DNA of 64,000 nucleotides, taken from NCBI GenBank assembly GCA_963706325.1, contig CAVPLT010000007.1, positions 192,001 to 256,000 on the forward strand. Reading direction: 5' to 3'. The position numbers were made by a program. Of this stretch, positions 33,001-46,649 are shown piece after piece (positions within the stretch are counted from its first letter, which is position 1; each line of letters starts with the position of its first letter). This DNA comes from an uncultured Nitrospiraceae bacterium. GTDB lineage: Bacteria > Nitrospirota > Nitrospiria > Nitrospirales > Nitrospiraceae.

Positions 33001-36000
33001 CCCCGGTGATTGGTATAACCGCGATGGGATGCCCAAAGCGGAACATAAAGTCGACGTATTCGTCGCGATCAATATCGATAATCTAAAAGCCGATTTGGCG
33101 AGAGGACAGGGCGAATATCTTGAAGCGCTGAGCGTGCTCCTTACGGTAGCCATTGATCGCCGGCAGGAGTTTTCGATGCGTGCGCAGAACGAATACAGCC
33201 GGCTTGCAAATCAGGATAGGGCTGCGGTTACGGAGGCCTTGGTCGCGCTCTCGCAGGGATTGCGTGACGCCTGATTTGCCGAGCCGCGTTTGATAGCGCG
33301 TTCAGCCTAGCGGGAATGGCGGGATGTGCCATGCCGATTGGAACCCGCCACCTGTTAGGCCCGCACATGGTGGGCCGCGTCCTCATTTTCAACAGGCACA
33401 GACCGAGAGAGATGCGGATGAACAGACGTTTCGATTCATCGAGCGCAGCAACGAGGATGGAAATGCCATGCTGAACAAATTGTTTCTGATATCCACAGTG
33501 CTCTTCTCGACACTCCTCATGGCCGGTTGCGCTGAGATGCAGTCGATGGGCGGTTCAGATGTATTGATGAAAATGCTCACGAGTCAACTGGGCGTGACGA
33601 GTGATCAAGCGAAGGGTGGGGTCGGGTCTGAACTCACCCTGGCGAAGGAAAAGTTGCCGAGCACGGATTTCAATGCACTGGCCAAGGCTATTCCGGGGTC
33701 CGATACCTATATGAAAGCAGCGAAGGACCTCGGTGCGGTGACTGGCCCCCTTGGAGATAAGGCAGGGTTACAGTCCGCTTTTCAGCGCTTGGGAATGCAG
33801 TCGGGAATGGTGGACAAGTTTTCGGGTCTCCTGTCGGACTTTGCCGGGAAGATGGGAGGGGAGCCAGTCAAGAATGCTTTGGCCGCGGTACTGAAGTAAG
33901 CAACCGCTACAGCGGCGGCCGGATGATGTCTCCACATGACAGCCTAAAAAGGCGGCAAAAATGAACACCTCTTCATTGGCAAACATGTCCGTTGGGTGGT
34001 CCATCCTGGTGGCCGGGATCTTTTCCGCAACGTGCGCGACAGTCCCACCCGGCATCGAGCCACCGAAGATATCCATTGCGAACATTGCGCCCAAGGACGT
34101 CGCCTTTTTTGAACAGCGCTTTGACGTCCAACTCCGAATCCAAAATCCCAATGAGAAGGAACTGAGCCTAACCGGAATGCGATTCGAGATCGACCTGAAC
34201 GAAAAAGAATTTGCCTACGGCATGACCGGGGAGAAGGTGATCGTGCCTCGCTTTGGCTCACAGGTCGTCAACGTCGAGGTCATCACCGGCCTCAGCAGTT
34301 TTCTCCGTCAGATACAGGAATTGAATAAGACGGGTACCGGTAAGATTCGCTATCGCATCAAAGGCACAGCGTTTGTGGACAGCCCTGGCATTTTCAAGCT
34401 GCCGTTCGATGAAAAGGATGAAATCGATCTTGGCTTCGCCCAGGCGTCTGAGCAGCAATAGCTCCTCAAGAGGCACACGTCATGACCGGCGGAACAAGGA
34501 TGAGTCCGGCAGGTGCGGCCGCACTCATGTCGGTATTGGGCAATATACTGAATACTGATGATCGCAGCTGGTCGGACATGACGTTCATACAAAGGGATTC
34601 TCAGGATAAAATTCTCCTGACGCTCAGACACGGATTCAAATCCCGTTGGGGCCACTAACTTTTTCCCTGCAGTTGGCAACGACCGCCGATTCACATCCCG
34701 CCATTGCGCCAAATTTGTGATAGTCACCTTTTAAAACCTGTACGCTTCCCGCACATTCTCCGGCGCGAGGTGCGCATATCGCTGGATCATCCGTCCGTCA
34801 CGATGGCCAAGCAACCGTTGCACCCTGTAGAGATCCACTCCTCGCTGCAGGAGCGCAGGGGCGAAGGTGTGCCGTAGGTCGTGAAAGCGGAAGTTCGTCA
34901 CCACCAACGGACTCACAGGCTTGCCGAAAGGCCGTCGTCACCATGTCCGGTGTGACCGGTTCCCTGTCCGGAGTGGTTTGAAGAAACACGGAACCGATCG
35001 CTAACGGTCGACAGGGTTTTAGGACTTCCATGGGCTCCTTCGCGGGATTGCATGGGGAATGCCCACCTGTCAATTGTGACAGTTCCTTTTTTTTTCTGCC
35101 TTAGTAACATCCCCACCGACATTTACCTCGCTTAAGTACAATTCAATCCGCGTTGCGCGCGCGATGGAGAATATCGGTGAGAAGTTGGGTCTGAACCCGT
35201 TTAGCCCGGCCAATTGAGGTTCATCCTTACGCTTGTCCGAGGCTAGCCGGGAGGTGACTGATGCAGTGGTTGGTAGAGACGCTTCAAGGTGACCCCGCGA
35301 TCGCCATCTTCCCCGCTCTAGCTCTGGGTTGCTGTTGTTCGCTCGTCTCGCACCGGCAGTGTGGTCACCGCTCGGAACGTCGAACTGAATGACGACGAAC
35401 TTGGCTTCGTTGCCTCGATGGAGCTGAATGCCCAGAAGGCAAGGATACCCCTCATGCTGGGCCTGACCAAGACCAGCGACGCAGGGGAGTCGCAGAAACT
35501 GTTCAATACATACTGATTCGAACGGTGGACAGATCCCTCATGAAGGAACCAGGACGAAGGTCTCTCCTCGCAAGCTATGCCGCGGTCTGCGTAAGTTTGG
35601 GCGCCTGCGCGTATGACCCGTCGTCTAGGGACGACTATGAGGTTCCAAAGCACATTCGAGAACGTCAGACATTGCGGCAAGACCCCTACGCCGATCCAAG
35701 ACCGAACAATGCGCCAGTCGATCCTCATTACTAGGATTTCTCAATGGGCCGGTGTCTCGTGTAGATCGACATGGGGGACAGGGGGAAAGGGAGGGCAACT
35801 ATGAGCGGAATAGACCGAGTTTATCCCTCGGTGAATGTGGGCCAAGCACGGACTAGCAATTCAGCGGGACAGGGGTTCGCTCAATTTCTTGCGCTCAGTC
35901 TTATGGTGATTGCGGTCAACGGCAGCCTACTGATCTTGCCAAAAGCGGTTCATTCGCAGGTAGAAGGCCCCGAACGCTCAGCCGAGTCCGATGAAGTGTT

Positions 36001-45000: not shown

Positions 45001-46649
45001 GAGGGGATAAACGAGAACTGGGGCTCTTGCTTCACAAACCGCCGTTGAAATAGGAGACGGTCTATGCCTCCTGGTGAGACACATGAGTCTGGGTCGCTCG
45101 AGGCAAACAGCCCGTTCGAGCTTCGGGTGGACAAAGGCAGTCATGTCCCCGAGTCGACTATCAAACAAGCGCTCGAGAGCGGAGATATCGGATTCATCCA
45201 CTCATTTACCACGGGATCGGCTGTCGATGGACCGGGAATGCGGGTCGTAGCATGGCTGTCGGGATGCCAGTTCCGGTGCCTGTACTGCCACAACCCTGAC
45301 ACGTGGAGCCTAAGTAACGGCATGCCTGTGCCGTTGGCACGCGCGATCGAGGAGCTTCGCAAATATCGTCACGGGCTGAAGGTGATGTCCGGCGGGTTCA
45401 CCATCAGTGGTGGCGAGCCACTCATGCAGGATCGGTTTGTCGTCAAGTTATTCACCGCTACGCATGAAATGGGGATCCACACCGCGTTGGACACCAACGG
45501 TTTTCTCGGCGATCGCCTCAGCGACGGCGAGTTGGAAAAGATCAACCTCGTGCTGCTCGATATCAAAACCTGGGACGCCCAGCGACACCGACACCTGACC
45601 GGAAAGGATGTCGGCCCGACCATCGATTTCGCGCGCCGGCTGGCTGCCCGCAAACGGCCATGTTGGCTTCGTTTCGTCCTGGTGCCGGCATTAACCGACG
45701 ACCCGCAGGACATTTCGCGAATTGCCAAGTTCGCGGCTGGGCTGGGAAATATTGAACGCGTGGATGTACTGCCTTTTCATCAGTTGGGCCAATTCAAATG
45801 GAAAGAACTGGGTCTTGATTACACTCTGGAAAATACAGCGCCCCCGTCCCATGAACTGGTTCAACGCGTGTGCGCTCAATTCGCGGCGGAAGGCCTGAAG
45901 GTATACTGATAGGCTGAATTGCACCCCGACACCCGGAGCAGCGGAGAACCATCACGAATTGGTTGGAATGTCAGGGAGTAGTCTGGAGTTGGCAAGAGAT
46001 GAAGTATAAAAAAATGGAAAACCTCGCAAAATCAAGTCATTGTTAAAAATATTCTGAATCGACTCTCCTAGAACACACCTGAACGATAAGCCGTCAGCCC
46101 GTCGCCGATCCTTCCCAAAATAGCCGTCATCGCCGCTATCGCACAGGCGCAGGCGATCGGCCGTTGCGGTCGTTCCCCCTTTGCTGAACCTGTCAAATCT
46201 GACAGTATCCGACGTCACCTCTCCATGCTACCTAATGACCGGATACACTTGGTCTACTTTTGCGTGAGAACGCAATGACGAAGGAGGTTCGGGGCATGGC
46301 ACATACAGCAGAACATCGTCGCTTGGAGGAACATCGACAGAAAACTGCGCCATGGAAGAAATGGGGTCCTTATCTCAGTGAGCGGCAATGGGGAACGGTC
46401 CGGGAAGACTATAGTTCCGACGGCAACGCCTGGGACTATTTCAGCCATGAACAGGCCCGCTCACGAGCCTATCGCTGGGGTGAGGACGGACTGGCGGGCA
46501 TCTCGGACGACCATCAAATTCTCTGCTTCGCGCTTGCGCTGTGGAACGGGAAGGATGCCATCCTCAAGGAGCGGATCTACGGTCTCACGAATAGCGAAGG
46601 CAACCATGGGGAAGATGTGAAGGACTACTATTTTTATCTGGATAGCACC

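Follow-up and report, generated by a model that had tools for sequence, protein, structure and literature searches.

A rare candidate serine-fermentation cassette with pyruvate formate-lyase and a putatively exported serine dehydratase in a soil nitrite-oxidizing Nitrospiraceae bacterium

Introduction

Nitrospira are usually regarded as respiring chemolithotrophs. Among better-studied fermenters, Escherichia coli degrades serine, threonine, and cysteine by means of an importer and a cytoplasmic enzyme (PMC9040844). The type 2 L-serine dehydratases have three cluster cysteines, a C-terminal cysteine, and a catalytic histidine whose roles are treated in PMC12647591. Within Nitrospira, homoacetate fermentation with an acetate- and ATP-yielding Pta-AckA branch has been proposed for the comammox metagenome-assembled genome (MAG) LK70 (PMC7078480). 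That proposal runs pyruvate:ferredoxin oxidoreductase (POR) in reverse, and its authors were unable to account for electron disposal. A literature search that reached few subscription journals, and article texts rather than supplementary MAG gene tables, returned no paper on pyruvate formate-lyase (PFL) in Nitrospira or on a Tat-exported SdaA. Here, we describe a gene cassette that bears on both.

Results

The window analyzed is a stretch of 64,000 nucleotides from the genome of an uncultured Nitrospiraceae bacterium. The initial annotation took the host for a nitrite oxidizer, and this was borne out. The genome encodes a Nitrospira-type NxrA (1585 bits to PDB 7b04), and AmoA and AmoC had no match in the assembly, which is 96% complete; the AmoC model did match the genome G337, which served as a positive control. 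Its NxrA is of the periplasmic type, which with no AMO match characterizes canonical nitrite-oxidizing Nitrospira, and the host is a soil nitrite-oxidizing bacterium that has probably acquired a rare serine cassette.

Seven co-directional genes on the + strand, from 35771 or 35801 to 45909, make up the cassette as first delineated, and the families assigned to them hold, with TIGR00720, NF008852, TIGR00016, TIGR01255, and TIGR02493 all scoring over their cut-offs (Table 1). Besides its TIGR01255 match and cognate activase, PflB has the adjacent Cys-Cys pair and the C-terminal glycyl-radical motif, both of which align with those of E. coli PflB (1h16, 1010 bits). The structure nearest to the short transacylase is the phosphate butyryltransferase 7vg9. 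The MFS protein matched no NCBIfam model over cut-off and no relative of solved structure, and its atlas clusters are automatically named MFS or MFSD1-like. The porin proved a looser companion than had been supposed, since it stands 253 bp from sdaA and is absent from G044, one of two other carriers of the cassette; it is 77% identical in nucleotides to a porin gene upstream of sdaA in the second carrier, G337, and homologues occur in 17 of 80 loci of SdaA relatives. Matches to an FNR-type box numbered 35 against 25.7 expected, and neither the intergenic gap preceding the porin nor that preceding sdaA has one. A promoter/terminator scan was at chance (5 versus 6.0 and 12 versus 12.0).

Table 1. 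Coordinates of the cassette genes and of the remnants upstream, as positions in the window
Feature	Position	Strand	Evidence
tRNA-Glu(CTC) 3' fragment and flank, att-like scar	34622..34669	+	91.7% over 48 bp to own tRNA-Glu C1:162208-162255
Tyrosine integrase C-terminal remnant	34743..34898	-	PF00589 E 1.2e-14, 54.8 bits
Asparaginase/glutaminase C-terminal remnant	35361..35516	+	PF17763 E 1.8e-7, below cut-off
64-codon remnant like porin N-terminal part (duplicate piece)	35540..35734	+	58% over 36 aa to adjoining porin
DcaP-type outer-membrane porin	35771..37351 (start 35771 or 35801)	+	PF19577 50.2 bits
SdaA, single-chain (type 2) [4Fe-4S] L-serine dehydratase, 547 aa, leader-bearing subfamily	37605..39248	+	TIGR00720 407.9 bits, cut-off 345.1
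Putative SdaA leader: long n-region, twin-arginine R44 R45, hydrophobic helix, V-x-A cleavage-type site at residue 67	37605..37805	+	
MFS transporter	39277..40578	+	PF07690 128.9 bits
Short phosphotransacylase (Pta/Ptb type)	40575..41507	+	NF008852 516, cut-off 413
AckA, acetate/propionate kinase, two frameshifts near 3' end	41518..42695	+	TIGR00016 342.9, cut-off 293.4
PflB, pyruvate formate-lyase, frameshift near codon 17	42713..44979	+	TIGR01255 1139.3, cut-off 994.2
PflA, PFL activase (radical SAM)	45064..45909	+	TIGR02493 286.8, cut-off 231.75

The rarity originally claimed for PflB was confirmed. Full matches (94 to 100%) were found in 3 of 371 Nitrospiraceae genomes, this one included, and in none of the 38 others of the genus; two further genomes of the family gave only weak glycyl-radical-enzyme matches of 28 to 36%. 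Of the other carriers, G044 is NXR positive and AmoC negative, and G337 is a comammox bacterium. Both have sdaA-MFS-pta-ackA-pflB-pflA in the identical order at 85 to 96% amino acid identity over aligned codons, in agreement with the earlier observation. In the three Nitrospiraceae genera, the cassette is inserted at unrelated sites; in G337 it is followed by ORFs that, by sequence appearance only, were named as an aldolase, a second kinase, a phosphoketolase-like protein, and a phosphorylase-like protein.

A placement among Nitrospira core genes did not hold. Positions 20,000 to 56,000 have only scattered matches in 38 congeners, positions 1 to 19,900 have almost none in five congeners, and the cassette sits in a variable accessory island behind a tRNA-Glu/integrase scar. 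The stretch that matches this scar starts inside a full tRNA-Glu in the genomes G087 and G083, and ARAGORN found no full tRNA in the window. The asparaginase/glutaminase remnant is 57 to 67% identical to the C-termini of ORFs beside SdaA relatives, and a 23-codon piece at 35261 to 35329, which may resemble the start of an aspartate:alanine antiporter, has no match in Pfam or among the neighbor ORFs and was left unassigned. Composition gave no island signature (GC 55 to 58%), and a plasmid search returned no close copy of the cassette, with all 246 records under 60% identity.

SdaA belongs to the TIGR00720 family, with fused beta (PF03315) and alpha (PF03313) domains, and resembles PDB 4RQO at 313 bits and a fold-match E value of 6e-21. 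In an alignment of 59 SdaA sequences, H157, C431, C473, C484, and the C-terminal C547 are invariant; the counterpart of H157 in the Legionella enzyme is His61. C488 is invariant as well, and the motif around it reads PCIERC in 78 of 80 relatives versus PCIERN in all seven short SdaA proteins of other Nitrospiraceae. L-Cysteine desulfidase (CyuA) was considered as an identity and rejected: E. coli CyuA has no blastp match to the cassette, its fold match has 10 to 11% identity, and SdaA keeps the His where CyuA would have a Cys/Glu catalytic pair.

The same alignment shows R44 and R45 to be invariant. They belong to a leader-like pattern, RRxF followed by an uncharged hydrophobic region and a cleavage site, that is conserved among homologues and that the initial annotation had overlooked. 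A Tat-like leader occurs in 68 of the 80 relatives, and 31 of these have a lipobox, so that both peptidase I and peptidase II types exist; among the 12 relatives lacking the motif, about seven appear to be real losses and five to be contig edges or frameshifts. When these N-termini were shuffled, the pattern turned up in 60 of 15,000 cases; it was seen in none of 196 N-termini of neighboring Pta, AckA, PflB, and PflA proteins, in 3 of 44 MFS N-termini, and in none of the seven short SdaA proteins of other Nitrospiraceae. Against TIGR01409, the leader scored 12.9 bits, below the cut-off of 16.7 that the NxrA control passed with 19.7; four other leaders were also under the cut-off (14.0, 14.7, and two with no match). 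Its n-region is unusually long, at 43 aa, and the predicted structure has a helix at residues 44 to 61 and a disordered N-terminus. The host genome has two TatC genes. RidA (TdcF) guards the cytoplasm against the enamine intermediate, and it was found in just 3 of the 80 relative loci and, with E. coli TdcF as the query, had no match in the host genome. These sequence features suggest that SdaA probably acts outside the cytoplasm and deaminates serine in the periplasm, and an extracytoplasmic first step would change the roles of the MFS protein and the porin. A link between MFS presence and leader presence was dropped, since leaderless and MFS-less loci share one clade.

The six-gene order sdaA-MFS-pta-ackA-pflB-pflA recurs in 27 of the 80 loci, mostly in Acidobacteriota and with very short gaps, and this argues for one linked pathway. 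The MFS gene is present in 45 of the 80, and pflB is missing from 22 of the 62 loci that have at least 7 kb downstream. Recurrent neighbors in the relatives are glutaminase, a Lyase_1/fumarase-C (aspartase-like) gene, and Dcu transporters. Four cultured alphaproteobacteria have leader-bearing SdaA: in Sphingomonas sp. LaA6.9 it comes with MFS, pta, ackA, pflB, pflA, and porin genes, and the enzyme is also present in Microvirga puerhi, Vineibacter terrae, and Phenylobacterium J367. TdcB and TdcC (a PLP threonine dehydratase and a HAAAP transporter) were found in none of the 80 loci. Trees were built from rows picked by SdaA similarity, of which those with a stop or with less than 75% coverage were discarded (53 PflB and 83 SdaA rows kept). 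In both, the Nitrospiraceae copies form one supported group among mostly acidobacterial rows, with deeper nodes weak at 85 to 90. By its relatives, this is a soil cassette, widespread in uncultured soil Acidobacteriota.

The route from serine to acetate had been called complete. The gene families would indeed give a redox-neutral route, whereas ackA and pflB are frameshifted in the assembly by three coding indels within 190 bp that are unique to this genome. In ackA, a -2 at about 42581 to 42583 and a +1 at about 42604 to 42608, seen against G044, G337, and all eight metagenome contigs covering the site, put the C-terminal IPTNEE segment out of frame; the ORF stops at 42633, and the segment continues in another frame at 42612 to 42695. 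The IPTNEE segment is important for AckA catalysis. In pflB, a -1 at about 42763 to 42767 puts the PFL body in a different frame from the ATG at 42713, and the 773-aa ORF has as its start a spurious TTG within the tail of ackA. The frame is intact in the 755-aa ORFs of G044 and G337 and in 11 of 11 metagenome contigs. The formate dehydrogenase (FDH) cluster on C4, to which the formate had been proposed to be fed, has four +1 insertions relative to three congeners; that single-base insertions like those of the cassette also hit this FDH, which is present genus-wide, speaks for an artefact. Most changes found in this genome alone are synonymous (54 versus 6 in pflB, 68 versus 17 in sdaA), no in-frame stop is present in any of the six cassette genes, and the cassette is under purifying selection.

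Discussion

The explanation that we favor, with about even confidence, is a cassette for serine fermentation that was gained by horizontal transfer and has its first step outside the cytoplasm; it would supply energy in anoxic or suboxic spells in soil, and its frameshifts here are most likely assembly errors. Serine would enter through the porin. SdaA would receive its 4Fe-4S cluster in the cytoplasm and be exported folded by Tat, to be lipid anchored in many relatives, and in the periplasm would split serine into pyruvate and ammonium. Pyruvate would be imported by the MFS protein, possibly against formate or acetate, and PflB, activated by PflA, would cleave it to acetyl-CoA and formate, a reaction that leaves no reduced ferredoxin in need of disposal. 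Pta and AckA would then yield acetate and one ATP per serine, and formate would leave by a FocA-type channel or be oxidized by FDH. Ammonium freed in the periplasm would act as a buffer against acid; in the comammox carrier, it would arise on the side of the membrane where the ammonia-oxidizing machinery lies. More tentatively, and at somewhat less than even confidence, nitrifiers in soil that belong to three genera of Nitrospiraceae (NXR and no AMO match in two, comammox in one) may have taken a redox-balanced amino acid fermentation from an Acidobacteriota-rich soil pool, in which a Tat-exported 4Fe-4S SdaA frees periplasmic ammonium.

Whether the cassette works in this host turns on the frameshifts, which we judge likely to be assembly errors rather than decay. 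Both other carriers and the related soil contigs are intact, and this makes an assembly error the likelier cause. Contigs from all four soil runs, each from a different study, have the intact-frame letters at 42580/42582, and three of the four runs have them at 42608 and likewise at 42767. The clustering is tight, with four indels inside 190 of 8,320 bp (P about 4e-5 under random scatter), and this, the synonymous bias, and the absence of nonsense codons all speak against a cassette that was functional in the ancestor and is dying here, its ackA, pflB, and FDH frameshifts real and at most serine deamination remaining. Multi-indel patches also affect other genes (21 of 116 ORFs compared with G099, an upper bound since spurious ORFs are counted). 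We regard such decay as somewhat unlikely, yet several observations fit it. The indels are found in no other genome, and 2 of 11 related metagenome contigs have a deletion of ackA. Gene decay is known from this lineage, in a second, truncated ackA and in the upstream remnants, and background frame changes are modest (4 matches, at 3 loci, in a test of 199 genes). For run X1, no indel is seen in about half of the depth at 42580 and 42608. The intact-frame soil contigs differ from the window by 4 to 5% there, many contigs elsewhere differing by 0 to 2%, so they may represent another allele. A raw-read-noise model for the ackA/pflB patch was not supported: such noise would enrich changes at codon positions 1 and 2, and the genome-specific changes there show no such enrichment.

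The exported first step has to be weighed against a conventional cytoplasmic serine fermentation, in which the MFS protein would import serine (or threonine or dipeptides) and the leader would serve something other than export, such as a membrane tether. The subthreshold TIGR01409 score and the E. coli precedent favor it, and the MFSD1-like resemblance of the MFS protein fits amino acid import better than pyruvate import. A Legionella MFS protein, PhtA, which may be of another family than the cassette MFS, imports threonine (PMC5974234). It is also awkward for the export model that an aerobe would have an oxygen-labile cluster in its periplasm. Against this, it is hard to see what other than export would keep the RR invariant and the helix hydrophobic and let peptidase I and lipobox cleavage sites alternate across several phyla, and we consider the cytoplasmic reading unlikely. 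The substrate may extend beyond serine, with the PCIERC subfamily of SdaA or the PFL and Ptb-like transacylase taking threonine/2-ketobutyrate or cysteine to propionate or sulfide. The invariant C488, the 59% identity of PflB to TdcE, and the nearness of the transacylase to butyryltransferase structures would suit this, but the retained catalytic His of L-serine dehydratases, the meager CyuA fold identity, and the lack of TdcB-type threonine dehydratase among the relative loci make it quite improbable; PflB also scores 1010 bits to E. coli PflB versus 895 to TdcE, values that come from different programs and so do not settle specificity. Ammonium release and acid buffering, or nitrogen supply, might instead be the main purpose, PFL, Pta, and Ack serving mainly for pyruvate disposal or for a separate fermentation of glycogen-derived pyruvate. 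The recurring glutaminase, aspartase-like, and asparaginase neighbors, the ORFs that follow the G337 cassette, and the absence of pflB from many loci point that way; the exact, tightly spaced six-gene order in 27 loci points to a single pathway, and we hold this reading, too, to be distinctly unlikely.

If the more tentative reading, of a fermentation taken from the soil pool with a Tat-exported SdaA, is true, a nitrite oxidizer could gain ATP with neither oxygen nor nitrate, and periplasmic Fe-S dehydratases would form a class not yet described. Export of the iron-sulfur enzyme would be a new site for a textbook cytoplasmic activity. Export would tie amino acid turnover to the ammonium supply of nitrification, making the host an ammonium source for neighboring ammonia oxidizers or, in comammox, for its own AMO. 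The breadth of the cassette in soil Acidobacteriota and the four cultured alphaproteobacteria with a leader-bearing enzyme make this testable now.

Compared with described systems, the cassette seems, from its protein sequences, to resemble tdc in function only, through three homologous enzymes. Homologues of TdcG (41%), TdcE (59%), and TdcD (39%) are clustered and would perform the same chemistry. The tdc-like layout first suggested is not there: the order tdcA-B-C-D-E-F-G is not found, TdcA, TdcB, TdcC, and TdcF are lacking, and Pta, PflA, MFS, and porin genes are added. SdaA shares its fold (42% in the structural match), three cysteines, C-terminal cysteine, and catalytic histidine with Legionella pneumophila 4RQO and with E. 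coli SdaA, SdaB, and TdcG, and differs from all of them in a 95-aa N-terminal extension with a putative twin-arginine leader, which TdcG lacks, and in a Cys for Asn after the third cluster cysteine. The PflB/PflA and Pta-AckA set of E. coli mixed-acid fermentation is matched in its TIGR01255 and TIGR02493 families and active-site motifs; unlike it, the cassette includes an amino acid deaminase and a short Ptb-like NF008852 transacylase, and its host is a nitrifier. With respect to LK70 (PMC7078480), PFL in place of a reversed POR would remove the electron-disposal problem, and a substrate-entry module is attached; the PFL route would close the gap in that proposal and offers an explanation, open to testing, for the persistence of soil nitrifiers where oxygen and nitrate are absent.

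A co-directional cassette for serine catabolism

The cassette is real: its seven genes lie on the plus strand, co-directional as the initial annotation held, and all five NCBIfam assignments made there were reproduced above their cut-offs. The porin gene lies 253 bp upstream of sdaA, and from sdaA onward the intergenic distances, with true starts and stops used, are 28, -4, 10, 17, and 84 bp. Such enzymes convert serine to pyruvate and ammonium, pyruvate to acetyl-CoA and formate, and acetyl-CoA to acetate and ATP, which is redox-neutral overall. The function is fermentation-like, built from known enzymes in a new variant whose most unusual feature is an Fe-S dehydratase predicted to be exported; the integrity of the cassette in this genome is unproven.

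Features of the window and of contigs C7 and C4 of the host genome (G000); plain coordinates count along the window. G044 and G337, other PflB carriers; G099, G088, and G083, congeners
Feature	Position	Strand	Remarks
Four Ysc84-domain (PF04366) genes	2337-2918, 11379-12098, 20481-21224, 24117-24716	-	Within 23 kb
Non-coding repeat, 140-180 bp	20086-20266		Many copies across congeners and G337, 78-89% identity
LuxR-family regulator	28391-29221		Adjoins response-regulator receiver genes; 6.5 kb 5' of cassette, no link shown
Short perfect inverted repeat, then T run	35066-35082		Upstream of cassette; could be terminator or operator
DcaP-type porin, SdaA, MFS, Pta, AckA, PflB, PflA, in that order	35771 (or 35801)-45909	+	
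ackA, two bases lost	~42581-42583		Versus G044, G337
ackA, one base gained	~42604-42608		Versus G044, G337
Intergenic base gained	~42704-42706		Versus G044, G337
pflB, one base lost	~42763-42767		Versus G044, G337
GH63/MGH1-like glycoside hydrolase	46260-49028		Immediately 3' of pflA; two paralogues in genome, 62% and 55%
Second acetate kinase gene	G000:C7:382,200-383,000		Ends early, apparent internal deletion; then phosphoketolase-like ORF
Third NxrA-like match (L095)	G000:C7:709,600-711,900		Shorter open frame, 1003 aa versus 1158 and 1169
Formate dehydrogenase (FDH) cluster (L097, L141)	G000:C4:754,200-759,850		Four single-base insertions versus G099, G088, G083

Distribution and genomic context

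The cassette is rare in nitrifiers. Among 371 Nitrospiraceae genomes, the PflB search found true copies in three, namely, this genome and two of other genera, G044 (96%) and G337 (94%), besides two weak glycyl-radical paralogues; the claimed rarity within the genus was confirmed, with PflB in 0 of 38 congeners. A 401-genome sample of the phylum yielded only four further PflBs (56 to 59%), all from one other family. The host genome has Nitrospira-type NxrA copies (1585 bits to PDB 7b04) and no match for either AmoA or AmoC; a canonical nitrite oxidiser is therefore the most probable host. NxrA is also present in G044, with no AmoC match, and in G337, which has four amoC genes and is therefore comammox; both have a full-length FDH alpha reading frame. 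A soil or rhizosphere label is attached to 18 of the 20 runs containing part of the window; contigs from four of the runs were aligned with it.

The insertion site differs in all three carriers. From their sequence appearance, we take the flanking genes to be rsmG-like and mnmE-like in G044 and ATP synthase and sugar-catabolism genes in G337. Here, the cassette follows a fragment of the 3' end of tRNA-Glu, remnants of an integrase and of an asparaginase C terminus, and a duplicated piece of the porin. The cassette had been placed among core genes; it lies instead in accessory DNA, with congener matches only scattered up to ~56.5 kb of the window. Its GC content is unremarkable. In the PflB tree, one clade (SH-aLRT 99) unites the three copies from Nitrospiraceae with six metagenome contigs and is nested in weakly supported, mostly acidobacterial groups; the SdaA tree agrees. 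A single entry into the Nitrospiraceae from a soil pool is likely. Two metagenome contigs of the cassette clade (L134, L139) have lost ackA, and their pta now adjoins the ackA tail and pflB.

The SdaA leader

The SdaA enzyme domain begins near residue 96. Before it come a disordered n-region and the motif R44-R45-x-F47, then a hydrophobic helix (residues 44 to 61 in the AlphaFold model, mean pLDDT 71.7), and last a V-x-A site with a Pro/Ala linker after it. Its relatives, taken as the best 80 of 338 related loci in GTDB genomes, come chiefly from Acidobacteriota but also from Alpha- and Gammaproteobacteria, Verrucomicrobiota, Planctomycetota, and Myxococcota. A Tat-like leader occurs in 68 of these 80, 31 of the 68 having a lipobox, compared with 60 of 15,000 shuffles, 0 of 196 soluble neighbours, and 0 of 7 short Nitrospiraceae SdaAs. 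With the curated Tat model the leader scored 12.9, below the cut-off of 16.7 (NxrA control, 19.7), so the predicted export-type assignment rests on conservation. In three Verrucomicrobiae loci (L083, L085, L088) the leader is retained with degenerate twin arginines, a pattern that suggests export was lost in a single clade.

Cys replaces Asn after the third cluster cysteine in 78 of the best 80 relatives, a mark of the subfamily. The cassette is one shared among soil bacteria: within up to 9 kb of the 80 relatives, ackA was found near 60, pta near 53, pflB near 52, pflA near 48, an MFS gene near 45, and a porin gene near 17; the exact six-gene order occurs in 27. Leader-type SdaA is present in four family genomes, the three PflB carriers and G118 (75%), where its neighbourhood differs, and ordinary SdaAs (40 to 41%) in seven others. 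The G118 copy (L121) has a lipobox-like form and lies on a short contig; no PflB match was found in that 74% complete genome.

Frameshifts and their origin

The serine-to-acetate route, claimed to be complete, is broken in this assembly by indels in ackA and pflB, relative to both other carriers. As a result, AckA stops without its C-terminal segment and pflB, read from ATG 42713, runs into a stop; the annotated PflB (773 aa) starts at a TTG within the ackA tail. The FDH cluster, found in most congeners, has insertions breaking up its NuoF-like and molybdopterin subunits, with the FocA-type gene intact.

The ackA and pflB frameshifts are probably assembly errors. Frames are intact in 8 of 8 JGI contigs across the ackA end and 11 of 11 across the pflB start, and contigs from four soil studies give the intact-frame letters at 42580/42582 in all four runs and at 42608, 42704, and 42767 in three of four each. 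In all six genes, most of the changes found in this genome alone are synonymous; under random scatter, four indels inside 190 of 8,320 bp would have P of ~4e-5. Real decay in this strain, a separate question overlapping the functional readings, is considerably less likely; in its favor, the intact-frame soil contigs diverge 4 to 5% from the window at the indel site, part of the depth of one soil run (X1) shows no indel, substitutions within the patch are unlike read noise, and the second ackA is truncated. Background frame changes gave only 4 matches at 3 loci in 199 genes, which also favors decay, with 21 of 116 ORFs versus G099 as an upper bound.

Function and comparison with known systems

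In our best reading, which as a whole has about an even chance, serine would be deaminated to pyruvate and ammonium in the periplasm, and the MFS protein would carry pyruvate or an organic acid. A cytoplasmic SdaA with a serine importer would resemble E. coli amino-acid fermentation, presented as importer plus enzyme in PMC9040844, and PMC5974234 names PhtA as a threonine importer; for an SdaA with a conserved Tat-like leader we think this arrangement unlikely. The SdaA catalytic residues agree with those of the Legionella enzyme, whose residue roles are given in PMC12647591. Substrates outside the serine/pyruvate route seem more doubtful still, as does, to the same degree, a role mainly in ammonium release.

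PMC7078480 proposes Pta-AckA homoacetate fermentation for comammox LK70 via reversed POR, without explaining how electrons would be disposed of; it also mentions that N. moscoviensis uses formate. Soil Bradyrhizobium expresses PFL, pta, and ack along with amino-acid degradation, according to PMC12872456, which does not cover Nitrospira. A literature search outside subscription journals and supplements found no publication on exported SdaA or PFL in Nitrospira. The layout had been likened to that of the E. coli tdc operon; that likeness did not hold, the overlap being limited to homologues of TdcD, TdcE, and TdcG.
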